Shown piece after piece: positions 1,181-59,653 of a DNA stretch of 64,000 bases; the first letter of the stretch is position 1, and each line of letters starts with the position of its first letter. This DNA is from a virus: positions 1 to 64,000 of the IMG/VR virus record IMGVR_UViG_3300046804_003617; one strand, written 5' to 3'. Below the pieces are notes generated by a model. The model did no database searches. It had not been told where the DNA came from and was given only the letters and a program-made list of their open reading frames with translations. Made by a program: the position numbers and the translations under genes.

Positions 1181-1627
1181 TTATTCTGCCTTCTTAATCT
1201 TTGATACTGCTGGACCCGCACCTTCGTTAAGATCTTTGATTTCGAAATAACGACTTAGTACGTGACCACCATCTTCATAAAGAGCTTCCATACGCTGTTG
1301 CATTGTATGTGCTTCTTTTGCGAGTTTGTTGAACTCTTCTGATACTCTGCGAAGCTGTTTCATGTTTTCAGAAACTGTCTTTTTATCAAACCAGTCTTCT
1401 GTTTCTGTCATTGTGAATTTTTCAGCAGCTTCTGTAATCTTTGCTAGTGTATGAGCAATTTCCATCAAGTTATGTTCACGGCGAAGCTGACCACCATATT
1501 CATTATATTTACCAATGGCTTCGAGTGCCATCTTCTTTTCTTCTACAGACCAACCTTCTTGCTGGACAACTTCTTCCATCTTGGTCTCAAATCCTTCTAG
1601 TAATTTTCTTAGTTTTATTGATTTCAT
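1181..1627 (-). CDS. Hypothetical helical head-module protein
   Basis: 148-aa ORF, tightly packed, leader MKSIKLRKLLE. Confidence 0.7.
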   Translation of the reverse strand: MKSIKLRKLLEGFETKMEEVVQQEGWSVEEKKMALEAIGKYNEYGGQLRREHNLMEIAHTLAKITEAAEKFTMTETEDWFDKKTVSENMKQLRRVSEEFNKLAKEAHTMQQRMEALYEDGGHVLSRYFEIKDLNEGAGPAVSKIKKAE

Positions 1628-1638
1628 AATTGTATAAT

Positions 1639-2340
1639 TTATGCGGCTGGTTCTTCTGCTGGAGCTTCCGGCTGCTTTGTAGCAAGAGCTTTCATACTTG
1701 AAAGTAATTCAGGCATACCAGGTATGGTCATATATGTTGCCATATCTTCTGAGAAACTTGACATATCTTCTGGAGTTTGAATCTTCAATTTTTCGACCAT
1801 TTCTCCTGCCAATGCGTCAATGGCATTTGTCTTGAATGCTTGGTCTAGAATTTTTCCAAGAAGAAATTGTGTTCCACCAGAAGAAGCCAGTTTTACATAT
1901 TGATGCTTTTCAATTTCTTTTTCGGCTTGGTCTTTTTCAGCTTTTGCTTTGGCCAACTTTGCCTTTGCTTCAGCAGCATCTGCTTCTGCTTTATCGGCAT
2001 CTTCTTCTCCTCCTGCATCAGGAGCAGCATCTGCTTTTGGAGCGTCTCCACCTTCTGGTGCTTTAGTATCTTTTGGTTTTTCATCTGCTCCTCCTAGTGG
2101 TGGCAAATCTTTACCAGCATCTGCGCCTTTATCTCCGCCAGCATCCAATGGTGGTAAATCTCCACCTTTATCATCTGCTGGTTTTTCGTCCTTTTTTTCG
2201 TCAGCTTCTTTGATTTTTTTCTTTTTCTTAGCTTCGTCAATTAATCCCCAAGAAACACCAGTAATACGACCTTGCGTTGTTTTGCTGGCAATTTCGGATA
2301 TAAGCTGCTTGAGATATGGATTGGAGACTTTGTTGTTCAT
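1639..2340 (-). CDS. Hypothetical head-module protein with acidic Gly/Ala/Pro linker
   Basis: 233-aa ORF with the late-type motif 4 nt upstream. Confidence 0.7.
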   Translation of the reverse strand: MNNKVSNPYLKQLISEIASKTTQGRITGVSWGLIDEAKKKKKIKEADEKKDEKPADDKGGDLPPLDAGGDKGADAGKDLPPLGGADEKPKDTKAPEGGDAPKADAAPDAGGEEDADKAEADAAEAKAKLAKAKAEKDQAEKEIEKHQYVKLASSGGTQFLLGKILDQAFKTNAIDALAGEMVEKLKIQTPEDMSSFSEDMATYMTIPGMPELLSSMKALATKQPEAPAEEPAA

Positions 2341-2344
2341 ATGT

Positions 2345-2356
2345 TATAAATATATA
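2345..2356 (-). promoter_or_regulatory. Late-type motif TATATATTTATA
   Basis: 4 nt before ATG 2340; one of about 15 copies. Confidence 0.7.
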
Positions 2357-2373
2357 CGTCTTATTATAAAATG

Positions 2374-2556
2374 TTATTTCATGATCTGCTTCACCAGTTC
2401 GCTTAGTTTGATTGGCTGTTCGACTTCTTCATTTTTTGCGTCAGGAACATTTGCGTGTAGTGCGGCTAGATATTTCTTTACTGGTCCTTTAGTGCATCCC
2501 ACCTTTTCACCAGTGTCTGCTTTGTATACGCATTTTCCTTTTGCTTTATATGGCAT
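2374..2556 (-). CDS. Small basic hypothetical protein
   Basis: 60-aa ORF filling the gap immediately after the protease. Confidence 0.55.
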   Translation of the reverse strand: MPYKAKGKCVYKADTGEKVGCTKGPVKKYLAALHANVPDAKNEEVEQPIKLSELVKQIMK

Positions 2557-2560
2557 AAGT

Positions 2561-3190
2561 TTATCTTACTTCTGACAAGATATCGCGGATGATATTTTCT
2601 ATCTTCAGATATTTGTTGATGTCATTAGCTCCAACAGACGCAATTACTTGACCACGATTTACACTTTCATTGATTGCGCCAGGTGACATATAAGCGCCAC
2701 GTGTTGATGGAGAACTTACAAGGTCAAAGCAAAGTAGCTCAAAGTCATCTTGAACTTCTACGGTGTTTTCATTCATTTGACGAACACTACCAAGACCACG
2801 GCTGCTGATGCCAAGACGAACATTGTTCTTGATAAGTTCACGAGCAATATTACCCGATGGTGTTGTCAATAGTTCAATCTTACCAACGACTGTATCACCT
2901 TCCCAATGGCATTCTACAACATTGTGCGATACATTCTTTAAATTGATGATGGAACTATCTGGATGGTCAAGTTCTCCAAGAGCACGGCGTTCACTTATGA
3001 TTTGTTGATATTTTTCAACTTCGCGAGCAAGCACTTCTTTTGGATACACACGACCATTGTGGTTCTTTTCTCCTGCCTTCTGCAATGGACCGGACAATAC
3101 GAGTGGTGCATTTGGATTAGCACGTGCTTCTGTGAGCATCTGTGGGGTGATGTCAAATGGTATAAAATCTACTAGTAGTTGCTTGCTCAT
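2561..3190 (-). CDS. Prohead protease, T4 gp21-like
   Basis: Motifs NHNGRVYP, ALGELDHP, VSH, LGISSRGLGS and FDLVSSPS are typical of gp21-family proteases. Confidence 0.93.
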   Translation of the reverse strand: MSKQLLVDFIPFDITPQMLTEARANPNAPLVLSGPLQKAGEKNHNGRVYPKEVLAREVEKYQQIISERRALGELDHPDSSIINLKNVSHNVVECHWEGDTVVGKIELLTTPSGNIARELIKNNVRLGISSRGLGSVRQMNENTVEVQDDFELLCFDLVSSPSTRGAYMSPGAINESVNRGQVIASVGANDINKYLKIENIIRDILSEVR

Positions 3191-3193
3191 ATT

Positions 3194-3730
3194 TTATCCT
3201 TGTGGAAGTATGTTCTTGGCAACAGGTGCTCCTGCCGGTGTTGGTTTTAGTGGAACAATTCCACCAACATTCTTTAGTCCAGATTGTGGAGCAGAAGAAG
3301 TTGGTGGATTTACCTGTATTTGAGAATCGTCAAGATAATATTCTGATTGTGAGGCATTGCCTTCTTTACCAACAAACACGACATAATACTTGTCTTTCAT
3401 ATAACGAGTTTGTACATCGCTTACGGTGATAGTATATTCTTTTTCTATCTGACCAACCGACCCTTTGGAGGCATTTACGGTAACGGTCTTCTTTAAGAAT
3501 TGTTTCTTGAGTTCTTCACTAAACTTTTTAACAGCAGCGTCTTCTTGCTTTTCAAGATTCAACTTGAAGTTTCTAAATGATTGGGAAATATCTACAACAT
3601 TTCCACTTTGTGATGGTGGCGGTGTGGTAGCGGTAGGAGCACGACCTGGTGACATACCACCGGCAGCAGATGGGTTATTTCCCCAAGTATCTTCGTTCAA
3701 TATCTTTTTGGCTATACTTGTTAGATTCAT
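3194..3730 (-). CDS. Hypothetical protein
   Basis: 178-aa ORF in the head operon, leader MNLTSIAKKILNE. Confidence 0.7.
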   Translation of the reverse strand: MNLTSIAKKILNEDTWGNNPSAAGGMSPGRAPTATTPPPSQSGNVVDISQSFRNFKLNLEKQEDAAVKKFSEELKKQFLKKTVTVNASKGSVGQIEKEYTITVSDVQTRYMKDKYYVVFVGKEGNASQSEYYLDDSQIQVNPPTSSAPQSGLKNVGGIVPLKPTPAGAPVAKNILPQG

Positions 3731-3733
3731 AGT

Positions 3734-4234
3734 TTATTGTTTTCCCATTCTATTGATTCTCTTGGCAATTTCCTTTAAGCGACCGTGAATTTCCTTCATG
3801 TCAGGCTGAGTTCTTGCCCACAGATTATCGTTGCTATATCCACACTCCGACTTTAGTCTTTCGCAGATGCTTACAAGATATTCAACTTCACCGAGCATCT
3901 TCTTGGCTTGATTGATGCCATAAGAAATCTTGGCGTGATTTTTCATCATATCACTTTCCTTGAAATTTCTATAGCGGCTGCGAGCTTCCATTATATTCAA
4001 ATCACGACGTACTGTTGGCAGGTTTTCATTTTCTGATTCGCCTATTGTGGTATCATCCGTGTCTTCCTTACCAACAACCTTGCCACCAGGCATGCTTTTT
4101 GCAGCAACTTTCTTTTTGCTCTTGTGACCACGAAATGCTGCTGGGGTCATATAACCAGCAACAGCACCAGTGCCTGTCATTTCTTCAATGACTTCTTCAA
4201 CAAGTTCGCGGATGATTTGCTTGGCGTCTTTCAT
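3734..4234 (-). CDS. Hypothetical head-module protein (start revised to 4234)
   Basis: ATG at 4234 overlaps the upstream TAA (TAATG). Begins MKDAKQIIRELVEEVIEE, then TGTGAVAGYMTPAAF. Confidence 0.7.
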   Translation of the reverse strand: MKDAKQIIRELVEEVIEEMTGTGAVAGYMTPAAFRGHKSKKKVAAKSMPGGKVVGKEDTDDTTIGESENENLPTVRRDLNIMEARSRYRNFKESDMMKNHAKISYGINQAKKMLGEVEYLVSICERLKSECGYSNDNLWARTQPDMKEIHGRLKEIAKRINRMGKQ

Positions 4235-4518
4235 TACGTGTAAAGTTGGTCGTCGTGGATTTTGCTGTTCACCCACTCATATGCCATATCATTTAGTTGA
4301 TCAACCGCCTTGTCATCCAATGGAGTACCATCGGTATACTGTGCGGCGCTGATATATGCATCTGAAAAATCAGGATAGTCATTGCGGTCGATGCCGTCGA
4401 TTTCAATGCTCGCCACATCAACCTGTTTACCATTTACAACGAAATTTCCAGTATCTTGCTGACCCATAACTTCTTCAATGGTTTCTCTGATAAGCTGTTT
4501 GAGTTCTTTGCGTGTCAT
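4234..4518 (-). CDS. Small protein with shared N-terminal leader (candidate internal head protein)
   Basis: MTRKELKQLIRETIEE leader followed by an acidic domain containing DYPDFSDAYI. Confidence 0.7.
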   Translation of the reverse strand: MTRKELKQLIRETIEEVMGQQDTGNFVVNGKQVDVASIEIDGIDRNDYPDFSDAYISAAQYTDGTPLDDKAVDQLNDMAYEWVNSKIHDDQLYT

Positions 4519-4522
4519 ATGT

Positions 4523-4786
4523 TTATTTTTTTAGTAGTTGTGCCGTCACATTTGATACAGAATCAAGAATATCTCGTTCATATCCAATAAGGTCCGCTTC
4601 GTGTGTTGCTACATATCTTTTTCCATTGCTTATGGCGGCTTGCTGATTCGCTCCGCGAACAACTATAGAAAACTCTTCATTTCCCATCCGACCACCAAAA
4701 AATGTAACAACCCATTGTGGAGAAGTTGATACGGCCATTTCTTCGATTGTTTCTCTGATCAGTTGTTTTAGTTCTCCGCGTGTCAT
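4523..4786 (-). CDS. Small protein with shared N-terminal leader (candidate internal head protein)
   Basis: MTRGELKQLIRETIEE leader; the body is unrelated to the neighbouring gene. Confidence 0.7.
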   Translation of the reverse strand: MTRGELKQLIRETIEEMAVSTSPQWVVTFFGGRMGNEEFSIVVRGANQQAAISNGKRYVATHEADLIGYERDILDSVSNVTAQLLKK

Positions 4787-5655
4787 ATGTTTTTTAGTTC
4801 CTTTATGAGTTCATAGCTCAACATTAGAGCCATAATTTGGTTTTCCTTAACCAATGTGCCTTTGGTAATCTTATCCAATTGATTGAGTGTTTCATCGATC
4901 TTAATCTTCACAACATCATTGCTGATTTTGGTCTTAAGTTCGCTAATTTGCTTTCTAACTTCAGGAACTTCGGCGTTGATATATTGACGAAGTGAGTTGG
5001 TGTTGCTGATATTGTTGATATATTCGCGGATAAGAACCTTCTGCTTTTCATCGAGGCTCTTGTATTTTTCGTTGAACGAATCGACCAGCAACTTGTAAGC
5101 CAGCAAACGAACATCTTCATTTTGCTGTTGATATACCTTGATAAGATCCTTCTTTTCTTCTTCACTAACAATGCGAGTTGGTGTCTTTGCTGCCGCGATG
5201 CTTTCAACGATGCAGTTTCTTGCCTTGAACATTTCACGAGGATCACTTTGAACTTCATTCACGGCATCATCAAATACTTTGTATATGCTGGCAAGAAGCT
5301 TGTAGTTTGATATGCTTCCCTTCAAAAAGTCTTCAAGTGGATAATACTGCTTAATTTCCTTAATTAGCTCATACTTCTGCAAGTTTAGTGATTTTTCATT
5401 CAACTTTTTACGGCTACGAACGACTGTTTCAAGCAAGCGATCAGCAGAAGCTTGGTCCTTGGTTTTCTCTTCTAATACCACACGATATAATGCATTCTCC
5501 TTACCTAGTTCAGTGGACTCCGAAAAGTACTTACGCAAAATATTATTTGCTTTAGAGTCTTCGTTTCCATTTAGTATGTCGGCGGTGACTTGACGAACGA
5601 GTAGTTCGAATAAAATGCCCGCGTTCTTATACTTGGAGTGTTTAAGCTTCTTCAT
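4783..5655 (-). CDS. Helical head-assembly-associated hypothetical protein
   Basis: 290-aa ORF directly downstream of portal, late-type motif upstream. Confidence 0.7.
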   Translation of the reverse strand: MKKLKHSKYKNAGILFELLVRQVTADILNGNEDSKANNILRKYFSESTELGKENALYRVVLEEKTKDQASADRLLETVVRSRKKLNEKSLNLQKYELIKEIKQYYPLEDFLKGSISNYKLLASIYKVFDDAVNEVQSDPREMFKARNCIVESIAAAKTPTRIVSEEEKKDLIKVYQQQNEDVRLLAYKLLVDSFNEKYKSLDEKQKVLIREYINNISNTNSLRQYINAEVPEVRKQISELKTKISNDVVKIKIDETLNQLDKITKGTLVKENQIMALMLSYELIKELKNI

Positions 5656-5669
5656 ACAATTTTATTATT

Positions 5670-5678
5670 TATAAATAT
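5670..5678 (-). promoter_or_regulatory. Late-type motif
   Basis: ATATTTATA upstream of 5655. Confidence 0.65.
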
Positions 5679-5704
5679 GTTCTTCTATGATAAAAACTCC
5701 ATTT

Positions 5705-7576
5705 TTACTGCTGTTTGTCTTCTTGAATGATGTTTGATTCATCAAGTATAGACTTTTTTTCGGTTATGACCTGCTTGTGCTTATTATTATATTTAGCTTG
5801 CAGTGCCTTTTTTATGCTTTTCAGGTCTTCATCCATCGATAATGGACTTCCCCTGTATATATGGCGAGTTGATCGTTCTGTCTTTGATTTCTCTTTGTTT
5901 TCTTTGTCGCCAAGAACATCTTCGCCAAAGTTCTTTTCGTGGGATGATGTGTATTTTTCCTTGTTTCCTGTTTGATCGCGGTTTCCGCGTTCACGATCTT
6001 TGCGAGTTTCTTCTTCAAGCGGAGGCAATCCTCCTTCACCTTCACCGCCACCAGCTTCACCACCGGTCTCTCCGCCGCCTCCAAGATCCTCTGGTCCACC
6101 AGCGCCCATCTTTTGATTGCTGGTCGCCGGGTCATTTCCTTCATCGGTGATCTGCTGAATTCTCCACATTTCTTTTTTATCTTTTATGACTTGCTGCTTA
6201 AGCTCTTCGGCCTCATCGTCGGACATATTGAATATCTTGTTATACATCCAGTCTCTGCTGAACATATTGCTTTCTGCCATATCCGATGCAAGACTGATCT
6301 TACTCTGCCATATTTCGAGTTTCTCCTGTTCAAAGATTGTAGAAGGATTACTTAGTTCCAGTTCAAAATCAACAAGTGATGCGTCCTGATAGCCTTGGAC
6401 ATACAAGTGAACAATGGCAATCTTGGTTAATTCGGATACGATGATGCGCTGAATACGACCGATTGTGCGAGCAAATCTTACATCTTCGGCGGCGAGTGTT
6501 GCTTTACCAGACAGTCCTTCTTCATATCCAAGAAATGCTTTTGGAATCTTAAGCGCAGACATCATCTTGTTACGGATATATTCAAGGTCATCTATGCCGG
6601 TGAAATCCATACCAGGCAGTGTATCAATCTTTGTACCGCTATCACTGCCACGAACAGGCAGATAGAAATCTTCCACCATATTGTTCAAGTTAAAGCGAAG
6701 ATTATAATCGCCAGTGCGTTCGTCGATATATGGAACCTTTTTGACCTGACTGATGATTTTTTGCATCGCCGCATCAATGTCGGCAGGAGGAATGTTTCCA
6801 ACGTCAACAGAGAAGATACGCTTTTCTGGAGCACGCATGATGCGATGGATTAACATCGCATCTTCCATCAAGCTCAGTTGCTTCCAAACACGGCGTGCCG
6901 GTTCTACCATCGATTTACCATATGGTAGAAAATTACTGTCGCTTAATAGACGGAAGTGTGCGATTTCAAAATTTTCATATTCCATTCCGCCACCCATACC
7001 ATCGTGCTGGTATTTGACATAGTTGATGTTGTTTGGATCGCTTCCTTCTATGCGAGTGATTTCATATGGGCTGATTGGATGAACAAGGAATACTCCATAT
7101 TCCGGAGAAATTTCCATACGCAAAAAGAAATCTCCGTATTTGCACATATTGCGTGTCCAACTCCACATATTGAACTCGACGTTCAAGATGTCATAGAAAA
7201 GGTTTTCAAGTATCTTCTTGATGTTTTCATTGTTGCTGCGGATAGTAAGCACTTTTCCAAATTCACTTGGTACCAGACACTCGTCGCTATAGATATCAAG
7301 GGCGGATGCGATGATAGGATCCATATCCATAACGTCATAATCTCTGAACAATTCAAGACGGCTTGCCTGATAAGCCATACTTAAATCGCGGTTATGAAGG
7401 TTGAATGTGCTGCTTCTTAAACGATTAAAACGATCACGCAAGCTGTTTCTGTCTGTTGCGTATTGTATTTCATCTGTATCAACGATCTTAAGATTTTTGC
7501 CACCCACATTACGAACGATAACGTCCGTGCTGAACATTTTTTTCAGTCTACTGAATAAGTCTTTTGTTTCTGCCAT
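5705..7576 (-). CDS. Portal protein, T4 gp20-like
   Basis: Motifs LMEDAMLIHRIMRAPEKRIF, DVGNIP, EDFYLPVRG, TKIDTLPG and ALKIPKAFL. Confidence 0.95.
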   Translation of the reverse strand: MAETKDLFSRLKKMFSTDVIVRNVGGKNLKIVDTDEIQYATDRNSLRDRFNRLRSSTFNLHNRDLSMAYQASRLELFRDYDVMDMDPIIASALDIYSDECLVPSEFGKVLTIRSNNENIKKILENLFYDILNVEFNMWSWTRNMCKYGDFFLRMEISPEYGVFLVHPISPYEITRIEGSDPNNINYVKYQHDGMGGGMEYENFEIAHFRLLSDSNFLPYGKSMVEPARRVWKQLSLMEDAMLIHRIMRAPEKRIFSVDVGNIPPADIDAAMQKIISQVKKVPYIDERTGDYNLRFNLNNMVEDFYLPVRGSDSGTKIDTLPGMDFTGIDDLEYIRNKMMSALKIPKAFLGYEEGLSGKATLAAEDVRFARTIGRIQRIIVSELTKIAIVHLYVQGYQDASLVDFELELSNPSTIFEQEKLEIWQSKISLASDMAESNMFSRDWMYNKIFNMSDDEAEELKQQVIKDKKEMWRIQQITDEGNDPATSNQKMGAGGPEDLGGGGETGGEAGGGEGEGGLPPLEEETRKDRERGNRDQTGNKEKYTSSHEKNFGEDVLGDKENKEKSKTERSTRHIYRGSPLSMDEDLKSIKKALQAKYNNKHKQVITEKKSILDESNIIQEDKQQ

Positions 7577-7601: not shown

Positions 7602-7613
7602 TATAAATATATA
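7602..7613 (-). promoter_or_regulatory. Late-type motif upstream of portal
   Basis: TATATATTTATA. Confidence 0.7.
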
Positions 7614-7637: not shown

Positions 7638-9287
7638 TTAACGTAACAGCCAAGTTAGGTCTTCTGGCTTATTTCCGTGCATACCTGGTCCACCAACATG
7701 CATTTGCCACGGATTATTATGCACGCCGAACGGATTCACTCCTTTACCCTGACTGAGCAAATTTATATTGTGTTGTATTTGTTGGGCGGATGTTGACCCT
7801 ATTCTGTCTATTATCGTGCGTGTAACGCTGTCTGATTCTTTTCTAAGACGCAACGCGACATCTCTGATCCATAATCCTATTCCCATCGCCAGCACAAGGT
7901 CATCGTTATATCCTTCCATAGCTTCTGCTTTTGCGGATACTGCCCCGCTTTTCCATATAAAAACTTGTAGTTCTTCCAATAACCGCTTGCTATGAACTAT
8001 AACTTCTTTGTTTCTGAAATAACTTTCCAATTTTGATATGACCAGTGGACGAGTTTTGCTTGATGTTGTAAATCCCGGCGTCATCTTCTTTTCTTCTCTA
8101 TTCAACTTGTTGGTCATTTGATTTTCCACATCAACATACTGAAGATCGGCTGAACTATAAAATAGATTATCGTAGTTGCTATCCAACACTTCCTGTATTA
8201 CTGCCCAACCAACATTAGCGTTTTCTATAACAAGCAATGCCTTGTTGTATTCTGTTGCCATCGTCATAAGTGCTCGCGCATATTCTTTTGTTGGCAGCTT
8301 GCCTTTATATTCTGCAACTTGTTCCATCGTTTCTATTTCAAGTATCTGAGCGGCACTGAAATCTGACGCATCTCCACGAGCAACGTCGGCGGTGACCATA
8401 TATGATTTACCAGGTTCGGGATATTTGAATATCCAATATCCTTTGTCTATTCCTCGTTTTTCTATTGGTTCACAGGCGTGAGTCTTAGTATACCATTCCA
8501 GTATCGGAATATCGATGACGGTATTACCGGATGTGCTAAATTCACAATCACATTCCTGCGCTGCTCCTCTTTCACCGGACAACTTGGTTTGCTCGTCGCG
8601 CCACTTCTGGTCACGTTCTGGGTGAAGATGCCAAGGCAAACTGATACGGTTCATACCGTTCAAACCTTCTTCGGACTCTGTCCACATTTTATGAAACCAG
8701 TTACCAACACCGTTTGGCGTGGATAGAATGATCGCTTTACCACCTGTTGACAATGTGTATTGTGCCGACAGCCAGATTTCCTCGATGTTGTCAATGAATG
8801 CCGCTTCGTCAACCACCAGCAACGAAAGTGCGCTTGAACGACCAGATGTGCCAGCACTGCTTGCGGCTTTGATTTCAGAACCATTCTTCAGTTTCAGTGA
8901 TAGTCTATTGTCTTCCACGGCTGGAACCTTTAGCCAACTTGGTAGATTGTCATTTGCAAACCGAACCTTGGTAACAATAGCCTTGGATGTTTCCTGCGTG
9001 ATACTTAAGCACAAGATTTGCTTGTCCGTAAAGAATGTCATTAGCCATATGGCATATCCGGATACAAGCGTTGTAATACCCATCTGGCGACTCTTTAGAA
9101 TGATATTCTGGTCGTTCTTTACAAAATCTTCAAGCGCCTTGTCTTGGAATGGGTATGTGAGAAATGGCAGTGTGCCTTTTGTTGGGTGCTGAATCTTGAC
9201 ATACTTCTTCATAAAGTATATCGGGTCTTTGGCACACTTGGCGTATTCCAACTTTATAACATCTTTTAGATTTTGCGTGCTTGCCAT
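7638..9287 (-). CDS. Terminase large subunit, T4 gp17-like
   Basis: KSRQMGIT (Walker A), LLVVDEAAF (Walker B), STPNG, nuclease motifs ADVARG..D and NDDLV. Confidence 0.95.
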   Translation of the reverse strand: MASTQNLKDVIKLEYAKCAKDPIYFMKKYVKIQHPTKGTLPFLTYPFQDKALEDFVKNDQNIILKSRQMGITTLVSGYAIWLMTFFTDKQILCLSITQETSKAIVTKVRFANDNLPSWLKVPAVEDNRLSLKLKNGSEIKAASSAGTSGRSSALSLLVVDEAAFIDNIEEIWLSAQYTLSTGGKAIILSTPNGVGNWFHKMWTESEEGLNGMNRISLPWHLHPERDQKWRDEQTKLSGERGAAQECDCEFSTSGNTVIDIPILEWYTKTHACEPIEKRGIDKGYWIFKYPEPGKSYMVTADVARGDASDFSAAQILEIETMEQVAEYKGKLPTKEYARALMTMATEYNKALLVIENANVGWAVIQEVLDSNYDNLFYSSADLQYVDVENQMTNKLNREEKKMTPGFTTSSKTRPLVISKLESYFRNKEVIVHSKRLLEELQVFIWKSGAVSAKAEAMEGYNDDLVLAMGIGLWIRDVALRLRKESDSVTRTIIDRIGSTSAQQIQHNINLLSQGKGVNPFGVHNNPWQMHVGGPGMHGNKPEDLTWLLR

Positions 9288-15316: not shown

Positions 15317-18211
15317 TCAGTCGGCAGTTTCTGCTCCGGACTTTATTCTTTTATCTATAAAAAGACGCAAAAGATACACGATATATGCCTCACCGGCATA
15401 TTTGTTGGTAAGAACAGCCTGAGTGACATTATTCAGCTTTTGCTGCAAGAAAGCCAGCTGACTCTCCGTCTTTGCTGTGCTGTCTGGATCAACTTCTCCG
15501 CTGGCTTTGATCTCGTTCCACTTTGCCTGTATTTCCTTAAGTTCCTTTTGTGCGGATGCCAATACTTCATTTGCGCGAGTTCTTACTGCTTCGGGTGAAG
15601 CATCAATTCCTTGTGCTTTCAATGAATTATATACTTCGAGTGTAACTTTGTTTGCGGAAGCATCGTCTGTGACATCTCCCACCTTTGCTTTTGCGGCGGC
15701 GATGGTTTTATTAAGTGTGGCGGCGTGAGCGGTTGTCATACCAAGAACCTTGGTAAGAAATGCACCATCAAGAACCTTTTCAGCATTTCCAACTGCCTTA
15801 CGAGTTCCCCAAGTCTTTTCAGCAATCTTGTGAAATATTTCAGAAGTGCCCTTGATAAAAACAGGCTCATCGGGAAGATTGATTTTCAACACAACGCCTT
15901 CAACTGGATATTTACGAGAAGCGTCTGAACTTAGGAACGTATTGATGCGTTCGGCATACTTGTTGAGCACTCCTTGCATCTGATCCTTGACCTTGCGGAT
16001 GATCTTTTTTAAAGCGTCCTTCTCGGGACTTTCTTTGCGAGTTTTCAACAATGCTGCTGCTTGTGATAGTTTGGCTGGGTCGCCAACGAGCTTTTGAATT
16101 CCGGAAAGATTAAATACCAATCCTTCTCTGCTCAGTGATCCGTGCTTGCTGATATTGTACACTTTCCATTCTGGATCACTTGTGCTTTCAACCATATCCA
16201 ATATTTCTTCGGACGATTCTTCTCCGTGCTTTTCACAGGTTGCTCCAAAGCACACAAACGCTCCCCTGTTTCCAAGTTTGGATTTGTTGTATTTGGTGGA
16301 AGCAAACACGATATCACCAAGCTCATCGCCCTTATGGGTCAATACAGGAAACATTTCAGATGTGATCTTGAATGCGCCGTGTTTCTTTTTTATTGCCTGC
16401 AACTTTGTTTGCAATGGCTTGTATCCGTTCAGGAACTTCAGTGCCTCATAGAAATGAACGGTGAATGGATTATTCAGCTTTTCCGCGTTGGATATGGTTA
16501 CTTCTCCGCTGTTGGCGGATTCTACAAAGAATTGACCAGACGCATTCAATCCCCATTTGCAGGGAGAGCCATCAAGTTTTTCAGTGACTGATGCATTATT
16601 GGCTACGCTCAGATCCATTTTACCCTGTTTTACCAGTGGCTGGATACGGCGTAGAAAGTCCAAGAATTCAGCGTCGGTCATTTCATTTGCACCTGAGAAA
16701 CGCTGGATGGAAAGTTTGTTTGCTTCTTCAAGCCTTGGATGTAGCAGATCCGGCTCCGCCGCTTGGCTCTTTGCCATATTTTCCTTATATGCGTCGATGA
16801 TCTCTTTTCTGAATTGCGGGAACTTGAAATCCTTGGACTTGAACAAAGCATACACTTTTTCAAATGTATCAATGTCCGCGAATGTCTTGTCTTCACCAAA
16901 CAGGAACTTTGCCACAAAATCCATATCCGTGGACTTTAGCTCTCTGCTAACTTCCTTGCGCTTGCCCTTGGCATCAACCGTGAACTTTTGCAGGAAGAAT
17001 CCTTCTGCCGGTGAAAGCATATATTTCTGCTTCAAACCATTTGGTCCAGCGTCTTCAATGATCTTGGAAAGTATTTCAGATATCAGCAGGTTTCTGAATT
17101 TTGCCTTGTATTGACTTTCGGGGGCACCGGAATAAAACTTTTCTCTCCAGCTTCTCACACCAAGCATAACATCAACCTGCACATATGGCTCTTTGTTTGG
17201 ATCTTCACTGCCGTCCTTGTTTACAAATGGCTGGTTGACAGCCTTTCCAAGCAAATGAAACTGAAACAGTCCTTTTGCCGGTTTTCCTGCCGGAAACTTC
17301 TTTGATAATGCATCAAACAGAGCATCCTTGTCAGCCGTAGGAGGCAGCTTCAAGAACTTAAGCATATCTTTTGTATCAACTGCGATGTCTATATCTCCCA
17401 GCAATGGCTTGCTGAAGTTTCCTATTTTGGAGTATTGGATCTTGCCGAGACCATTGTCTTTCAGTACTTGTGTTATTGTTGGGTCAAGGTTTTCACGCCT
17501 CACCGCAGAGACTTCGACATCAAACATTTCTCCACCTTCTTTGAGCTTCTTCTTGGCTGGTTTTTCCGGTGGAACATATCCGGCGGCTTCCTTGAATTTA
17601 TCAGAGAGCAGCTTTGCTATCTTAGGATCATACCAACCGAAGATCTTATCAAATGTTTCCTTGCTTGGATTTGACGCGATCATACCACGGATTTCGGTTC
17701 CGCTAAGTTCCTTGCCGTCAACTTTAAGGGAAAAATGTGGAATAACAATCAGATATCCGTGCTTTGTGAAATCTTCAAGGTTGTTCTTGTTCTTTTCATA
17801 AAACTGTAAGTATGCTGGAGAACCATCTTTCTTTACGCCGCCAACGTTGAATCTTTCAGCGTCTTTCTTTCCGAATCCAAATACTATGGCGGAGTTTTCG
17901 GGAAGCATATCCAATACTTCCGTTGCAATATATGGGTTCTTCACTTGAACAATCTTGTCAGCGGGAACTCCATACTTTACCCACACTGCTTTCTTTTCAG
18001 CAAAGCTTAATGGGCTATCTGGCAATTCTACCTTATCGGATGTGACAACGAAAGTTTTATCTACACCAAACTTGTCGGCCAAATACTTGTATGCCTGATA
18101 ATGGTGCGGTCCTGCTGGATGGAAACGGCCAGGATAGATGGCGTATACTTGATTGCTGTTTACGATTTCGTTATATAACTGTTCAATGATTTGCTCGGTA
18201 AGTTTGTCCAT
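15317..18211 (-). CDS. Three-domain protein: HIGH-type cytidylyltransferase-like + Pol-beta-type nucleotidyltransferase + ATP-dependent (RNA) ligase-like
   Basis: YPGRFHPAGPHH and SGTEIR; GDIDIAVD...VQVD; TEKLDG...EMF...EGVVLK...FIK. Confidence 0.65.
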   Translation of the reverse strand: MDKLTEQIIEQLYNEIVNSNQVYAIYPGRFHPAGPHHYQAYKYLADKFGVDKTFVVTSDKVELPDSPLSFAEKKAVWVKYGVPADKIVQVKNPYIATEVLDMLPENSAIVFGFGKKDAERFNVGGVKKDGSPAYLQFYEKNKNNLEDFTKHGYLIVIPHFSLKVDGKELSGTEIRGMIASNPSKETFDKIFGWYDPKIAKLLSDKFKEAAGYVPPEKPAKKKLKEGGEMFDVEVSAVRRENLDPTITQVLKDNGLGKIQYSKIGNFSKPLLGDIDIAVDTKDMLKFLKLPPTADKDALFDALSKKFPAGKPAKGLFQFHLLGKAVNQPFVNKDGSEDPNKEPYVQVDVMLGVRSWREKFYSGAPESQYKAKFRNLLISEILSKIIEDAGPNGLKQKYMLSPAEGFFLQKFTVDAKGKRKEVSRELKSTDMDFVAKFLFGEDKTFADIDTFEKVYALFKSKDFKFPQFRKEIIDAYKENMAKSQAAEPDLLHPRLEEANKLSIQRFSGANEMTDAEFLDFLRRIQPLVKQGKMDLSVANNASVTEKLDGSPCKWGLNASGQFFVESANSGEVTISNAEKLNNPFTVHFYEALKFLNGYKPLQTKLQAIKKKHGAFKITSEMFPVLTHKGDELGDIVFASTKYNKSKLGNRGAFVCFGATCEKHGEESSEEILDMVESTSDPEWKVYNISKHGSLSREGLVFNLSGIQKLVGDPAKLSQAAALLKTRKESPEKDALKKIIRKVKDQMQGVLNKYAERINTFLSSDASRKYPVEGVVLKINLPDEPVFIKGTSEIFHKIAEKTWGTRKAVGNAEKVLDGAFLTKVLGMTTAHAATLNKTIAAAKAKVGDVTDDASANKVTLEVYNSLKAQGIDASPEAVRTRANEVLASAQKELKEIQAKWNEIKASGEVDPDSTAKTESQLAFLQQKLNNVTQAVLTNKYAGEAYIVYLLRLFIDKRIKSGAETAD

Positions 18212-18216: not shown

Positions 18217-18228
18217 TATAAATATATA
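18217..18228 (-). promoter_or_regulatory. Late-type motif upstream of the 964-aa tri-domain gene
   Basis: TATATATTTATA 5 nt before ATG. Confidence 0.7.
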
Positions 18229-50928: not shown

Positions 50929-52353
50929 TCATCCTCCCAAAAATACTCTACTGCTCATCAGTGAACTAAGCTGTGATCTCAAAGCGGTCAAACTCATCTG
51001 AGACGCATATAGAGATTGCATCTGTTCTCCCCACGCAATGATAGAGGGCGGCATTGTCGGCGTAGTTGGACCAAGCTTTGTGAAGTGGAAGTGTGCAATA
51101 AGTGCTGTCAGCATCTGTATTTGCGTGTTTACATTCAATAACATCCAATCGCACAATGCATACAACCACAATACCGTGGTTCTTCCAAGCAATGCCGGTT
51201 GATCATTCGCGCCTTCAGTGTTAAAATTCAGATATATCTTTGAAGCATTAAGGGTCATTATGCCCTTGTTTGATGTGATTGTTGTATTTCCATAAGAATT
51301 CAGGCTTAACACCTGATCCGTGGCGATTGTAAGCATTTTCTTGGAAAAGAACATCATTTCGTTTGCTCTGGATGAAAAGACAATTCTATCACTATTGATT
51401 ACAACCTGATCTCCATCAAATTTTGGCATAGGAATGCCTTTGGTGACATTCACCAAACCGGTAGTGGTAGTTGGAACAAACGATGATATAGTTTTTCCTG
51501 ATGTAATATGAATAGATGAGCCATCCTTGTTTATGTCTTCAAGCGTGTATCCTTTTCCAGTTTTTCCCTGAGATAATTTTACAGGAGCTTGGCGATTTCT
51601 TATCAAGATCATCGGATTTCCACCGTGGTCGGAATATTCTCCCAAGCCACTGTCATTTCCACGATTGTTATCGTATGCACCAAACCTTATGGAAGATCCA
51701 AATCTCGATTGCAGGATGGTATCTCCTTCATATGCCTTTAGTGAGCGAATCTTTGGATTAAACTTGAAATAGCTTCCAAGCACTCCGGTATAATCTTCTC
51801 CTCCCCCAAAGTTCATCTGAGATTTTGGTCCAGTATATGGTTGACCGGTATATTCATTTATGTTTTCATCGACGAATCCAGAGTTTCTTTCTGCGGAAAA
51901 ATCCGCGTTGGCGTTTATGGTGGAGTTTACATTAAGCTTTCTGGTATAAAAATACTTATCCATGTATTGACCAACCACTACTATTTCATTCATCAATGGA
52001 TATTCAACCACTCCGGTATTTTCCAATGGATAAGCCCAATATAACACTTCCTTCTCTGTATTTTTCTGGCTGTTCAGAAATCTGAATTTTATTCTGCCTA
52101 TCCAAGAAAAATTCTTGTCGTTTCCATCCGGTTTGCTGCCGTCTATGTTTGGGGGCCAAGTTTCACCATCCAATGTTGCATCTCTCATTATTGGATGATT
52201 TTCATCCATCACCACATCCAACACAACAGCTTCTTCCAATTCATAGAAAAACACGGAGTCCGGTTTTCTTTCAATCACAAAACGTTTTGACGCAAGCATA
52301 TCATCTTGCTTTGTGCTTTGCTCTCCGCGTTTCTCTACGATTTCGTAAGCCAT
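50929..52353 (-). CDS. Baseplate hub/central spike protein (gp5/gpV-like, no lysozyme domain)
   Basis: GRIKF..AYP..P..NEIV (OB-like); EGDTILQSRFGSSIRF; beta-repeats; C-terminal HFH..GPT. Confidence 0.65.
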   Translation of the reverse strand: MAYEIVEKRGEQSTKQDDMLASKRFVIERKPDSVFFYELEEAVVLDVVMDENHPIMRDATLDGETWPPNIDGSKPDGNDKNFSWIGRIKFRFLNSQKNTEKEVLYWAYPLENTGVVEYPLMNEIVVVGQYMDKYFYTRKLNVNSTINANADFSAERNSGFVDENINEYTGQPYTGPKSQMNFGGGEDYTGVLGSYFKFNPKIRSLKAYEGDTILQSRFGSSIRFGAYDNNRGNDSGLGEYSDHGGNPMILIRNRQAPVKLSQGKTGKGYTLEDINKDGSSIHITSGKTISSFVPTTTTGLVNVTKGIPMPKFDGDQVVINSDRIVFSSRANEMMFFSKKMLTIATDQVLSLNSYGNTTITSNKGIMTLNASKIYLNFNTEGANDQPALLGRTTVLWLYALCDWMLLNVNTQIQMLTALIAHFHFTKLGPTTPTMPPSIIAWGEQMQSLYASQMSLTALRSQLSSLMSSRVFLGG

Positions 52354-53940: not shown

Positions 53941-54096
53941 TTATTCTTCGTCTTCTTCGTCGTCTTCCTCGACTTCATAACCAAGCTCCTCCTTGATTAT
54001 GTATAATGCTTCTTCGACGGATGGCCAACTGCGGCTATCAAGAGCATATTCCAATAGTTCTTTGACTTCTTCGATGTTATCTGGATCAATTTTCAT
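53941..54096 (-). CDS. Small acidic protein (51 aa, below the track cut-off)
   Basis: MKIDPDNIEEVKELLEYALDSRSWPSVEEALYIIKEELGYEVEEDDEEDEE; ATGA overlap with the def stop and fills the gap exactly. Confidence 0.7.
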   Translation of the reverse strand: MKIDPDNIEEVKELLEYALDSRSWPSVEEALYIIKEELGYEVEEDDEEDEE

Positions 54097-54710
54097 ACGA
54101 TTTTCCATCCTTGTTCTACGAGTTCAAGGGCTTTCTTGTATTTTATATATTGGGTCTCTCCGTTTTTTTCCACAATTACCTTATCATTTCTGCCGTGTTT
54201 GACCTTTTTTTCGACTTGCTTGATAAATTTGGTTCCTTCGTCGATCATAAGTTTCCCATTCAAGTGGTCTATTTCGTGCTGCACACAGATGGATTCCAGT
54301 ATTCCTACATCGTCATACACGCTTTCTTTTGTAGGAGGATTTGTGTCCGGACCAAATGGAATTGGATTGGCGTGATTAAGAGTGGATACTGTGACTCTCA
54401 TTCTACGCAATGTATTGCAGCTTTTACCGGGCAAGCTCAAGCAGCCCTCCAGATAAACAATCTTGTCTTCACTTGTCTCGGTTATGACGGGATTCATCAA
54501 AATAACAGGTGCTTGGCCTTTTCTGGCTCTGATCACAGAAACGCTTTTGGATATTCCAATTTGGTTGGCGGATAGTCCAACTCCGCCAAACGGCAAAGAA
54601 TCCAATGTTTCTATCAGCTTGTTTGCTATTTCTTGACCTTCTTCTATTGATGCAACCGGACTTGTCGGCTTGCGTAGATAATCCTTATCTTTGACTATTT
54701 TGTAACTCAT
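54093..54710 (-). CDS. def: Peptide deformylase (start revised to MSYKIV)
   Basis: GVGLSANQIG, EGCLS and QHEIDHLNG. Confidence 0.93.
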   Translation of the reverse strand: MSYKIVKDKDYLRKPTSPVASIEEGQEIANKLIETLDSLPFGGVGLSANQIGISKSVSVIRARKGQAPVILMNPVITETSEDKIVYLEGCLSLPGKSCNTLRRMRVTVSTLNHANPIPFGPDTNPPTKESVYDDVGILESICVQHEIDHLNGKLMIDEGTKFIKQVEKKVKHGRNDKVIVEKNGETQYIKYKKALELVEQGWKIV

Positions 54711-54741
54711 GTATGTGAATGATTTATAGATACAATTCACA

Positions 54742-54769
54742 TATATATCTATTTGTTTTACTTTGTCAA
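54742..54769 (-). promoter_or_regulatory. Sigma70-like promoter for the def-to-sigma operon
   Basis: TTGACA followed by an AT-rich -10 (TATATA). Confidence 0.45.
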
Positions 54770-54785
54770 ATTATAATAAAACAAA

Positions 54786-56327: not shown

Positions 56328-56350
56328 ATTAAAATAAATATCGTATATAC

Positions 56351-56384
56351 CAAAAAACAAAACCCCGAAACTTTGTCTTCGGAT
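56351..56384 (-). terminator. Intrinsic terminator after the papain-like gene
   Basis: CCGAAGAC-AAA-GTTTCGG hairpin followed by a U-rich tract. Confidence 0.5.
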
Positions 56385-56409
56385 ATCTTTTGTTCGTGCC
56401 GACTAAACA

Positions 56410-57231
56410 TCACGCGGTCGCAACGTCCAACAATTTTGCTTTTGATTTTATCAAATTAAACAGTTGTTGCGGATCTATTTCATCCGCAACTTTTAACTTT
56501 TCCAAATCAACTTCTTCGGCTACTTTTTGTGCGGAAACAAGCTCATCTACGCTAATTATACCGGCTCTCGCCAACAAATGTGCAACAAACTCCGAACAAA
56601 AAAACTGGTCTTGACCCGTCTCTTCGGCGTTTATTTTTGATTTTTTGAATCTATTGACCAAATTCCACATTTTCGGAAATTTTTCCTTAATCTGTCTGAT
56701 TATTCCCTTGCTATCATATCCCTCTTCACCGGCCTTTAGCATCGACTTCAATTGTTCATATGCTTTGATTATTTTTGACTCGTCGCCGCCGAGGTTGAAA
56801 ATTATATAATTTTGCGGGTTGTCTTTTATTTCACTTCCGTCTCTGAAACCAACTCCCGATGTTACCGCATCCAGTATTCTACCATCGCTCATAACAAATC
56901 CGGCGTGATTCACTCCTTGCAAATCGCCGTGGATAATTTTATTCACGATTTGTATACCGGATCCAAAACTGGTCTGTTTATCCGGATTTAATTTTTCCTG
57001 ACCCTTTTTAATTGCCCTCGCAACAATCGGAATATTTCCTCCCAATTTTGCAGCCAAATCCAAAAATATTACAGGCAGATTGAATTTTGTTATATCAAAA
57101 AATACTTTTATACCAGGAACTTCGGTCTTCCATTGCCCAGACTTGGCATCTTTAACGACGGGATCAATTTCTTGAAGATTTATTTCTTCGATAGCTTCTC
57201 GGATCAATGCTCTGAGTTCGGACTTCTTCAT
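56410..57231 (-). CDS. Permuted NlpC/P60 papain-like enzyme (YaeF/YiiX-like) with shared leader
   Basis: NHAGFV (His) precedes GYD and FFCSEFVA (Cys); leader MKKSELRALIREAIEE. Confidence 0.75.
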   Translation of the reverse strand: MKKSELRALIREAIEEINLQEIDPVVKDAKSGQWKTEVPGIKVFFDITKFNLPVIFLDLAAKLGGNIPIVARAIKKGQEKLNPDKQTSFGSGIQIVNKIIHGDLQGVNHAGFVMSDGRILDAVTSGVGFRDGSEIKDNPQNYIIFNLGGDESKIIKAYEQLKSMLKAGEEGYDSKGIIRQIKEKFPKMWNLVNRFKKSKINAEETGQDQFFCSEFVAHLLARAGIISVDELVSAQKVAEEVDLEKLKVADEIDPQQLFNLIKSKAKLLDVATA

Positions 57232-57254
57232 ATTATAATAAATGAGGTATACTC

Positions 57255-57265
57255 ATAAATATATA
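57255..57265 (-). promoter_or_regulatory. Late-type motif upstream of the permuted papain-like gene
   Basis: TATATATTTAT directly after a terminator. Confidence 0.65.
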
Positions 57266-57267
57266 TA

Positions 57268-57300
57268 AAAAACAAAAAACCCAGATTTTGCTCTGGGTTT
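57268..57300 (-). terminator. Intrinsic terminator after the DNA methyltransferase
   Basis: AAACCCAGA-loop-TCTGGGTTT followed by a U tract. Confidence 0.75.
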
Positions 57301-57304
57301 TATA

Positions 57305-58090
57305 TCAAGCTGTTACGTCAAAGAATTCCGTCTTTTCTTTGACAACCTTGTTGTCTTCGTGCCATTTGATTCTAGTTTGGCACTTCTCATAATACTCTGG
57401 ACTAATTTCCGAGCTATAGCAATTGCGGTTCAAGTGCTGACACGCGATGTATGTTGTAGCAGAGCCGCCAAATGGATCAACCACAACGTCGCCTTCGTTA
57501 GTATGCTTATTGATAAGCTCTTGGAACAGTTCGAGTGACTTCTGAGTGGGATGAATGCGATCAATTTCGCGCTTACCTTGATAAATAGGATATTCATAGA
57601 TACCATTGTCATACTCAGAATTGAATGTAGCCTTTCCTCCCTTTACACAAGATATGGCAATCTCACGAGCATTGCTAAGATATGTTGCCTTGGAATTGAT
57701 CGGCACAGGATTGGTCTTTACCCATTCGATGAAACGCAACTTGCCAAACTTGTGCTTTTCAAGCAGCTTGCTTAGTGTTTCAATCTTCCAAAGATCAAAG
57801 AAGATGATGCAAGATCCGCCATTCTTCAAGATGCGGCTGAACTCCTTGATAAACTCTTCAAGATTATCCAAAGTAAAGTTATTGTCCCAATCACCATAGT
57901 TTGTCTGGATGGCATACTTGGTTCCATACTTCGCCTTTGATTTCTCATCATCGCTGGCATTGAACAAAGCATCCATACCAGTCTTTTTGGAGATGATGTA
58001 TGGAGGATCAGTAAGCACAAGATCAACGGTCTTGCTCTTGATCTTTTTAAGCATTTCCAACCCGTCCATATGATGATATCCGTAATTCAT
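57305..58090 (-). CDS. DNA N6-adenine/N4-cytosine methyltransferase (beta class)
   Basis: LTDPPY, HPTQKS and VVDPFGGSATT. Confidence 0.92.
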   Translation of the reverse strand: MNYGYHHMDGLEMLKKIKSKTVDLVLTDPPYIISKKTGMDALFNASDDEKSKAKYGTKYAIQTNYGDWDNNFTLDNLEEFIKEFSRILKNGGSCIIFFDLWKIETLSKLLEKHKFGKLRFIEWVKTNPVPINSKATYLSNAREIAISCVKGGKATFNSEYDNGIYEYPIYQGKREIDRIHPTQKSLELFQELINKHTNEGDVVVDPFGGSATTYIACQHLNRNCYSSEISPEYYEKCQTRIKWHEDNKVVKEKTEFFDVTA

Positions 58091-58099
58091 ATGGATACA

Positions 58100-58127
58100 A
58101 CTATATGGTTATAGTATAAAATGTCAA
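58100..58127 (-). promoter_or_regulatory. Sigma70-like promoter for the DNA methyltransferase
   Basis: TTGACA-16 nt-TATAGT. Confidence 0.65.
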
Positions 58128-59653
58128 GCAGTTTTATTAATCTTTTTCTTGGTAGATATGAATCCTATTGGTCTATTCGAAGGATCGTTTGATAGTCCGT
58201 TCCAAGAAAATCTAAAACTCATATTTTGAAAATTTTCAGTTTTAATTTCTAAATTATTATTTTTTTGATCCATATCGATGGTAACTTGATATGCAAAGGA
58301 TCCATAATTTAATATACCGTTTAACAATTCCACTGCTTTGGCGTTTTTATTTAAAACTTTTACTATATATGATCCCATCGGATAGTAGATATATCCATTT
58401 AATTTTGAGTTTTTCTGGTCATACATCAAGCCCAGTGTTTTGTCTGACGTTTTTGACCCACCCAAAATTTGATATACAGAATTTAGCCCGGAAATAAAAG
58501 CATTCTTGTCAAGGTTGGCGACAACGAAGTTAAACCATTCGTTTAAATCATCCTGAGACAAAGATTTTAAAGTTGGTCCATTATTTGGAACTGACATATT
58601 ATTTAATAACCGTATAATCTCCGCTTTCTTATCTTGTAAACGAGTATTATAAAATTCTTCTATGTTTGATACAGTTGTTCTTATTTTGGATACATTCATC
58701 AAAGATTTAATAATTCTATATTCATCTATATTACGTTGTATTAATAGATTATTTGGCTCTCCGCTCACGTTGATGAATTTATCCAAAATAAAGTTTAAAT
58801 TCGCCATACCGGTGGAACTTCCTTCTTTGGATTTTACGCTAAAAAATGTTTCTGGAACAGTATCTATTTTATAATCCCAGAAAGGGGAATTTGATTCTGG
58901 AGAAAATGATATTTTCTTTGCCTTTTTATTAGTGGATAAACTATGCAATCCCGCTAAAACTTCTCCAAAATTTTTACTTAATATCGAGATGTCTTTAGAA
59001 TTAATTTTAAAATCTCCTTGAATTGAATAATTTTTACTATATTCTTGAAGAGGCTCTTCTAGAGGAACGTCAATCGTAATTCCTGATACCGCTTCTATAC
59101 ATTTGTGCAGATACTTTTTTATTTCGTTATATTCTGGCTCTGGATATACCGTCTTAATATTGTTGAACACAAAATATGCTAATTTTTCTTTACTATCAAA
59201 GCTTTGTCCTACCAGATCTAAACTGCTCGGTGCAAATTCTTTGGAATTTGTCCCGCCCGGAATCACTGCTCCTATTATCTCCGAAGAATCTTTTGGAGTT
59301 TCCGCGTCTGTCGGTTTTCTTATAGCATTTAAATTTAAAAGACCCTCCAATCCAGAATCTAACATTTTTACTTTGGCATATTTTCCACTTTTTATTGTTC
59401 CTTTCCTTTCCGTTCCAGAAGATTTTATTTCTATAAAATCGGGGTCAAGTATGTTCAATTCTTGCCGCATTGTCACAGAATCGATTGGATTATAATCTGT
59501 TCCAAATAATTGCGAATCTTTTTCTACTTTATATATTTTTTGGGGGTCATACACTCTCTTAACATACCAGTCCCAAGTAACGCCCTTAGAGCAATTTCCC
59601 ATCAAATTAACCTCGTTTTGGATACTTTCCAATATACTTTTCAGCTTTATCAT
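58124..59653 (-). CDS. Hypothetical protein, possible PD-(D/E)XK nuclease fold
   Basis: NFGEVLA...NSPFWDY...FSVKS spacing; leader MIKLKSILE; own late-type motif. Confidence 0.45.
   Translation of the reverse strand: MIKLKSILESIQNEVNLMGNCSKGVTWDWYVKRVYDPQKIYKVEKDSQLFGTDYNPIDSVTMRQELNILDPDFIEIKSSGTERKGTIKSGKYAKVKMLDSGLEGLLNLNAIRKPTDAETPKDSSEIIGAVIPGGTNSKEFAPSSLDLVGQSFDSKEKLAYFVFNNIKTVYPEPEYNEIKKYLHKCIEAVSGITIDVPLEEPLQEYSKNYSIQGDFKINSKDISILSKNFGEVLAGLHSLSTNKKAKKISFSPESNSPFWDYKIDTVPETFFSVKSKEGSSTGMANLNFILDKFINVSGEPNNLLIQRNIDEYRIIKSLMNVSKIRTTVSNIEEFYNTRLQDKKAEIIRLLNNMSVPNNGPTLKSLSQDDLNEWFNFVVANLDKNAFISGLNSVYQILGGSKTSDKTLGLMYDQKNSKLNGYIYYPMGSYIVKVLNKNAKAVELLNGILNYGSFAYQVTIDMDQKNNNLEIKTENFQNMSFRFSWNGLSNDPSNRPIGFISTKKKINKTA

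Follow-up and report, generated by a model that had tools for sequence, protein, structure and literature searches.

What could make proteins with unrelated bodies begin with the same few residues? The question is raised by the viral record IMGVR_UViG_3300046804_003617, of which we analysed positions 1 to 64,000 (hereafter the window) and in which a short amphipathic N-terminal leader recurs on several such proteins. The window covers 64 kb of a metagenomic contig 76 kb long. All its real genes lie on the minus strand, and judged by gene content it holds the structural module of a distant T4-like myovirus. We consider it probable that the shared N-terminus acts as a lineage-specific, T4-like capsid-targeting propeptide, as had been proposed in an earlier note on this DNA.

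Three proteins of the window, with gene starts at 4786, 4518 and 57231, open with the pattern M-x-x-x-E-L-K/R-x-L-I-R-E-x-I-E-E. When the whole 76-kb contig was scanned in six frames with ELKQLIRETIEE under the BLOSUM62 matrix, four outliers were obtained (scores 56, 56, 42 and 39, versus 26 for the best unrelated match), each at the very start of an open reading frame (ORF). They are the three proteins above and the 166-amino-acid (aa) protein starting at 4234, in which the same core lies two residues nearer Met1. A profile hidden Markov model (HMM) built from 34 leaders of related phages matched the proteins at 4518, 4786 and 57231 with E values from 6e-10 to 4e-7. The N-termini quoted in the earlier note were all present on the minus strand where it had placed them, and the bodies behind them proved as unrelated as it had said: no pairwise BLAST match was better than E 0.01, and none was found between the 87-aa and 94-aa bodies. 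Searches of the small leader proteins against Pfam and PHROGs returned nothing.

The anatomy of the leader was defined from an alignment of 32 examples carried by different bodies. Its consensus is M1, three variable residues and then (E/Q)5-L6-K7-x-L9-I10-(R/K)11-E12-x-(I/V)14-x-E16, where M1, L6 and E12 are invariant, E16 is nearly so on the variable cargo, and K7, L9 and I10 are more than 90% conserved. Information content drops to background past residue 17, giving a length of about 16-17 residues; the dominant type, MKKSELKQLIREVIEE, has 16. Both I10-x-E12 and the frequent I/V14-x-E16 satisfy the (L/I)-x-E rule of T4 gp21. The AlphaFold2 models of the 273-aa and 509-aa proteins both predict the leader, at low confidence, as a free N-terminal helix. 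Leu6 is encoded by five different codons, Leu9 by six and Ile10 by three, and Ser4 is found as both TCN and AGC; so many synonymous codons at conserved residues indicate selection on the peptide and not on RNA or DNA.

In phage T4, a capsid-targeting sequence (CTS) on the internal proteins IPI, IPII and IPIII and on Alt is cleaved off by the prohead protease gp21 (Mullaney and Black 1996, cited in PMC9026906, PMC3012670, PMC5694885). Internal-protein propeptides have 10-19 residues; in IPIII, residues 4 and 7 determine targeting and residues 8 and 10 (I and E) processing, and an Asp at position 10 blocks processing with targeting retained (PMC9026906). The T-even internal proteins form a diverse set with the CTS as their only common feature (PMC3012670). 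IPII and IPIII read MKTYQEFIAE/A in the T4 record (a slash marks the junction here and below). The present system is alike in having a predicted N-terminal propeptide of 10-20 residues on unrelated proteins, with a hydrophobic, amphipathic pattern and an (L/I)-x-E end; in the S77 protease encoded in both genomes; and in cargo genes that are scattered and variable between relatives, with core proteins encoded between the portal and protease genes. It differs in that the leader is longer than the 10 residues of T4, has another sequence and contains two nested I-x-E sites. Carriers number about 5-14 per genome instead of four, with at least 613 carrier clusters in metagenomes, and their cargo includes enzymes (papain-like in the window; NUDIX and exonuclease in a relative). 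The same genome has a shorter leader class as well, some ORFs hold tandem internal copies, and the system is known from sequence alone. In the giant phages phiKZ, 201phi2-1 and SPN3US, ejection proteins carry long propeptides that a gp21-like protease cuts at (S/A/G)-x-E (PMC5694885). There too, many proteins inside the head are cleaved by an S77-related protease at an x-E motif, and the paralogues gp53 and gp54 have an identical 15-residue N-terminus. Unlike here, however, the propeptides mostly exceed 100 residues, no single portable short tag is used, and the P3 residue is small rather than Leu/Ile.

The leader is widespread in related phages. Among 65 related loci fetched via the protease, most contain one to four small leader ORFs, either between the portal and protease genes or directly after the protease gene. 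These ORFs open with M-x-x-x-(E/Q)-L-K-x-L-I-(R/K)-E-x-(I/V) and continue with locus-specific sequence; in all, the fetched loci gave about 33 body families among 105 leader proteins. Single-linkage clustering of the N-termini at a low threshold was useless, as clusters were chained through Lys-rich starts. A degenerate DNA pattern for the core had 20 matches in five large relatives, all on the gene strand, versus none for the reversed pattern used as a control. In a 297-kb relative (G002; 100% complete by CheckV), 10 of the 11 DNA-pattern matches lie exactly three residues past a Met or a likely non-ATG start, and the 34-leader HMM identifies 12-14 carriers, dispersed from 23 kb to 275 kb.

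A profile of 32 leaders was then compared with 1.84 billion representative proteins, and 613 clusters were matched at E <=0.001; in 136 of the best 150 the core sits at residue 5 after Met1. The library carriers are small (median 115 aa) and nearly all are orphans. The few weak Pfam matches include a Lar restriction alleviation protein, a RelB-like antitoxin and a type I specificity domain. No relatives of one library protein, P0235, were found in viral contigs. A few library ORFs contain a true second, internal leader copy that lacks the Met, in a tandem leader-body-leader-body arrangement (Table 1); they could represent fused gene calls or else cargo polyproteins that the head protease would separate. 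The earlier note had described a modular tag that loads effectors. Its modularity holds, with the tag found on dozens to hundreds of unrelated bodies, and 'effector' is a name we would apply to them provisionally.

The position and the upstream regions of the leader genes were also informative. Structural genes of the contig are preceded by the motif (TATA)TATTTATA, which is present in 15 copies; of these, 14 are situated 5-55 nt upstream of a gene start. The late promoter motif of T4 is TATAAATA, and TATTTATA is its reverse complement, read on the gene strand; TATAAATA itself was rejected as the promoter motif here (two gene-strand copies versus 15). The genes starting at 57231 and 59653 are stand-alone cassettes of terminator, motif and gene. 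The late-type motifs that the earlier note had seen at 18211, 57231 and 59653, and the terminators before two of these genes, are present, with TATTTATA as the motif and not the T4 TATAAATA; the gene starting at 49929 has TATTTATA in front of it too. In G002, 7 of 11 leader transcription units are preceded by an exact TATTTATA, compared with 22 of 314 other genes (Fisher p 5.6e-6): leader genes are enriched behind the motif, and the equal matching of early genes that would speak against capsid targeting was not observed. The leader genes are linked in this way to the motif that precedes structural genes, which would be expected to act late.

Fetching loci via the protease makes any linkage to it circular, and to avoid this viral contigs were scanned with a pattern for leader DNA only, which picked at least 120 loci with a mean of 8.8 kb. 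A T4-like head-module gene is present within about 9 kb in 50 of 120 leader-picked loci, versus roughly 9% expected, on a rough estimate, if placement were random across a genome of about 200 kb. Five of the ten largest leader-picked contigs encode Peptidase_S77, compared with 5.4 expected from their summed completeness, and the only complete contig among the ten has it.

The 509-aa protein starting at 59653 carries a shorter leader, and it provides a different line of evidence. The short class, MIKLK(D/S)(I/L)L.E, retains the core L-K-x-(L/I)-(L/I)-x-E and is found on four different body families. In G002 it heads both a NUDIX protein and a DEDD exonuclease, and one homologue of the 273-aa papain-like protein has it too; an orthologue of the 509-aa protein (74% identity) retains it. 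It coexists in one genome with the 16-residue class (as MIKLKSILE in the window and MIKLKDLL in G002), and the coexisting classes may set different docking sites or copy numbers. Short MIKLK/MHILLK-type leaders were noted in G002 at 89998 (NUDIX), 100571 (RNase_T-type exonuclease) and 19047 (HAD-like, with a DxDxV start), the last two belonging to cassettes of terminator, TATTTATA motif and gene.

Across 46 homologues of the 509-aa protein, 0-19 residues precede a conserved L.G.SRSGG..NW body. The extension ends in E-(A/T/V/S)-x in 40 of the 46; some show the exact T4 spacing (MKSFKTFVKE/AN, MKDFEQIFE/AG), and three homologues start MAS/L.G. Leaders that are swapped or missing within one family suggest that the element is exchangeable and is dispensable at the predicted cut. 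The model of this protein (predicted local distance difference test, pLDDT, 84) has an SH3b-like N-terminal domain and a conserved D260/S272/K274 core. Beyond the SH3-like domain its sole lead was a weak match to a PD-(D/E)xK homing endonuclease (Z 5.5), and the assignment as a nuclease was not adopted. Sequence searches of the PDB with the 273-aa profile and the 509-aa protein found nothing, and Foldseek searches with both models gave nothing significant.

The 273-aa protein starting at 57231 is a predicted enzyme behind the canonical leader. It has 17 homologues, and 12 of the 14 aligned keep this leader, followed by a conserved NLQE-IDP. His109 and Cys212 (in CSEFV) are invariant in 15 homologues, and no Pfam or PDB sequence match was found. 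With a model of pLDDT only 63, VIA-align returned 3kw0 (Z 9.1), YiiX 2if6 (8.6), TseH 6v98 (7.8) and RID 5xn7 (6.9). The earlier description of this enzyme as papain-like is supported by the His lying before the Cys and by the fold matches to YiiX, 3kw0 and TseH (Z 7.8-9.1); the protein is predicted to be a permuted papain-like (YiiX/TseH-like) cysteine hydrolase. Common to its body and the permuted NlpC/P60 hydrolases (YiiX/C92, TseH, LRAT-like) are the His-before-Cys order and the papain-like fold. Among its fold matches, TseH is an effector of the type VI secretion system and RID a MARTX domain.

The remaining N-termini listed in the earlier note are of unequal strength. Of its nine leaders, those at 4786, 4518, 57231 and 4234 are strong and those at 1627 and 59653 are supported, while those at 3730, 18211 and 49929 are weak. 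The leader at 1627 reads MNTLKLKYLIERIVDE in the G002 orthologue, and its family is present in 29 sequence sources. At 49929, K7 and E12 are missing (HMM 4.6 bits, E 2.9; scan score 25) and the leader is identical in the G002 orthologue; this 149-aa protein is an uncertain carrier. The N-terminus at 18211 matched none of the leader profiles; its extension has T4 spacing (a hydrophobic residue 4, I8 and E10), precedes a Rossmann strand and is optional among homologues. The primase N-terminus, against whose resemblance the note had itself cautioned, is only loosely similar: it scores 23, below the out-of-frame noise of 26, and was rejected as a leader. The same score was reached by the protease C-terminus and by the N-terminus of a 233-aa protein (1639-2340, minus). 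This last gene has its own TATTTATA-type late motif, and at the N-terminus of its product the leader core appears as YLKQLISEI, displaced to residue 10, with a Glu that the G002 orthologue does not conserve. Residues 26-93 of the 94-aa protein are 65% identical to residues 217-284 of a 375-aa protein of G002 (276386-277513), which is encoded directly after the protease and lacks a canonical leader; the match looks like a case of head-cluster domain shuffling.

If the leader is a capsid-targeting propeptide, its helix would dock a new protein onto the scaffolding core of the assembling prohead. After shell closure, the S77 prohead protease (2561-3190) would cut after E12 and/or E16, and the mature body would stay in the head and enter the host with the DNA. 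The position at Met1, the I-x-E sites, the linkage to S77, the modular bodies, the association with head block and promoter and the leader swap in the 509-aa family all agree with the capsid targeting advanced in the earlier note. The C-terminal tail of the protease, DINKYLKIENIIRDILSEVR (2564-2623), bears the leader-like IIRDILSE; its segment DINKYLKIENIIRDILSE(V/T)R is conserved clade-wide and the preceding linker is variable. The pattern hydrophobic-(I/V)-(R/K)-(E/D)-x-hydrophobic-x-(E/D) occurs eight times in the contig, namely in four leaders, in the protease tail and at three internal sites. Density of (L/I)-x-E peaks in head-cluster proteins: the 166-aa protein ranks first in the contig (8 observed, 1.9 expected) and the 149-aa protein second (7 observed, 2.2 expected), with the 290-aa protein fourth and the 148-aa protein fifth. 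The likely cargo in the window comprises the 87-aa and 94-aa orphans, the 273-aa papain-like hydrolase and the 509-aa SH3b-domain protein with its shorter leader. The conserved 166-aa and 148-aa proteins are more likely to be prohead core components with the same docking helix.

Several points weigh against capsid targeting. The likeness to the T4 CTS (MKTYQEFIAE) is one of pattern, with no demonstrable homology, the element being too short for statistics, and the lineage itself is represented here only by sequences. No cultured member has the canonical leader, Flavobacterium phage vB_FspM_immuto and Microcystis phage Mel-JY01 showing only weaker versions. The head module accounts for fewer than half of the leader genes. 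Some short-class carriers of G002 are enzymes of the NUDIX, DEDD-exonuclease and HAD-like kinds, and such enzymes are not known to be packaged in T4. The resemblance of the protease tail to the leader is weak taken alone (score 23, within noise), and the regular-expression enrichment tests were designed after the data had been seen. A more far-reaching version of capsid targeting is possible but less likely than not, and we put it forward tentatively. Here the leader would be the address label of a huge, fast-evolving, co-injected arsenal. Its carrier families would number more than 600; small orphans would dominate, some enzymes would be included, and there are hints of anti-restriction functions. 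The cargo would be encoded as cassettes (terminator, late promoter, leader, gene) or as tandem leader-body-leader-body polyproteins to be separated by the head protease, and would use two or three leader classes.

The element could instead be a permanent docking or oligomerisation helix of prohead core proteins that is not removed, in which case the bodies would be structural and not injected. This we regard as unlikely for the set of carriers as a whole and as possible for the conserved core proteins. It would account for the leader-like N-termini of the conserved 166-aa, 148-aa and 178-aa head-cluster proteins, and for the resemblance of the scaffold N-terminus and the protease tail to the leader core with D where cleavage needs E, since in T4 an Asp at that position blocks processing yet permits targeting (PMC9026906). 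Docking alone, however, does not need an invariant E12 and a near-invariant E16 on variable cargo; a papain-like hydrolase and similar enzymes are unlikely structural parts; and the leader boundary in the 509-aa family coincides with an E/A junction, some homologues beginning right past it.

A destination other than the capsid, such as a membrane, a chaperone (the phage DnaK/Hsp20), a degradation system or another late assembly, is improbable. Amphipathic helices are binding elements of a generic kind, over half of the leader genes are found outside the head module, and DnaK/Hsp70-like (59773-61680) and Hsp20-like (61691-62143) genes, both minus, adjoin the two leader cassettes of the window. 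Against this, the leader is tied to S77 phages and enriched at the head block, and its invariant I-x-E would be left unexplained. A chaperone tag in particular is unlikely because G002, with its 12-14 leader proteins, has no counterpart of the DnaK-like gene by BLAST. It is very improbable that a modifying enzyme recognises the leader, as in ribosomally synthesised and post-translationally modified peptides, given that the S77 protease was the only enzyme found to accompany it consistently. A radical-SAM recognition tag was rejected, PF04055 being absent from the relatives G000 and G001 and from the complete G002, with a control search positive in 14/14 genomes. Finally, a nucleotide-level element with a functionless peptide, whether for translation initiation or regulation or as a recombination site for cassette shuffling, is hardly credible despite three adjacent DNA-identical leaders in G002 and the mobile look of the cassettes, because the conserved residues use three to six synonymous codons each, with both serine families, and conservation tracks the amphipathic helix pattern and terminates on Glu.

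The genes around the leader ORFs fit the assignment of the window to a T4-like structural module. Together with the head genes of Table 1, gp25-like and gp6-like baseplate wedge proteins are encoded. The nearest cultured phages are Mel-JY01 and immuto (portal identity about 52%), and megablast of the head region against cultured phages gave no match. The truncated ORF at 3..1037 is homologous to a 413-aa immuto protein that is encoded ahead of the major capsid gene and annotated 'DNA polymerase phi-like'; on this comparison it was rejected as the major capsid protein and regarded as scaffold-like. The stop of the 290-aa gene overlaps the start of the 87-aa gene (ATGA), and a search of the ESM Atlas with the 290-aa protein gave no result. 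In Mel-JY01, a gene annotated as ribosomal protein S21 (L105 9749-9976) lies between the prohead protease and the downstream head genes, and the matching slot of the window (2374-2556) is occupied by a 60-aa basic ORF. The Hsp20-like gene of the window is conserved in G002.

Table 1. Features of the window and internal leader copies elsewhere. Positions refer to the window unless another source is named; leaders are predicted.
Feature	Position	Strand	Details
Scaffold-like acidic protein	3..1037	minus	Truncated by contig end; N-terminus MSDLLKQAIAD resembles leader core
148-aa conserved head-cluster protein	1181..1627	minus	Diverged leader MKSIKLRKLLE
Prohead protease, Peptidase_S77 (T4 gp21 family)	2561..3190	minus	phrog_207 9e-54; PF03420 8.9e-26
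178-aa conserved head-cluster protein	3194..3730	minus	Weak leader MNLTSIAKKILNE, keeps only L-N-E
166-aa conserved head-cluster protein	3734..4234	minus	T4 gp67/gp68 slot; leader core MKDAKQIIRELVEEVIEE, then conserved EEMTGTGAVAGY
94-aa protein	4234..4518	minus	Canonical leader MTRKELKQLIRETIEE; HMM 35.4 bits
87-aa protein	4523..4786	minus	Canonical leader MTRGELKQLIRETIEE; HMM 34.1 bits, E 1.5e-9
290-aa conserved protein (putative)	4783..5655	minus	Directly after portal gene; first in operon with leader genes and protease
Portal protein, gp20-like	5705..7576	minus	phrog_213, 3.5e-66
Terminase	7638-9287	minus	
964-aa multi-enzyme protein	15317..18211	minus	22-residue N-terminal extension MDKLTEQIIE...
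149-aa protein	49480..49929	minus	Upstream of gp25-like wedge gene; leader-like MKKNELVDIIRTLVKEE
273-aa papain-like hydrolase (predicted)	56410..57231	minus	Canonical leader MKKSELRALIREAIEE, then NLQE-IDP
509-aa protein	58124..59653	minus	Short-class leader MIKLKSILESIQNE
TATTTATA motif	5670..5677	minus	Heads operon from 290-aa gene through leader genes to protease
TATTTATA motif, further sites	59659-59666, 49947-49954, 18217-18224, 7602-7609, 2345-2352		
Motif as TATATATTTATA	59659-59666 and 18217-18224		Upstream of 59653 and 18211 genes
One-base variant TATTTATG (TATATATTTATG)	57254-57261		Upstream of 57231 gene
Terminator hairpin	57276-57301	minus	Directly upstream of 57231 cassette
Terminator hairpin	59683..59710	minus	Directly upstream of 59653 cassette
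Internal second leader copy	G002 24101-25156 (L090:4201-5256), G002 50931-52307		
Internal second leader copy	Library P0021, P0026, P0052, P0072, P0139, P0150		

The leader swaps of the 509-aa family and the tandem internal copies provide testable predictions of where the protease cuts. Should the leader function as the T4 CTS does, candidate injected proteins could be picked out of metagenomes by a simple sequence feature, with hundreds of families already found here, and a longer portable tag would be available, beside that of T4, to pack foreign proteins into phage heads. For the phages themselves, it would mean that the capsids of a widespread uncultured lineage come pre-loaded with a variable protein set delivered at injection, and that this cargo arrives ahead of any phage gene expression, when counter-defence counts most.

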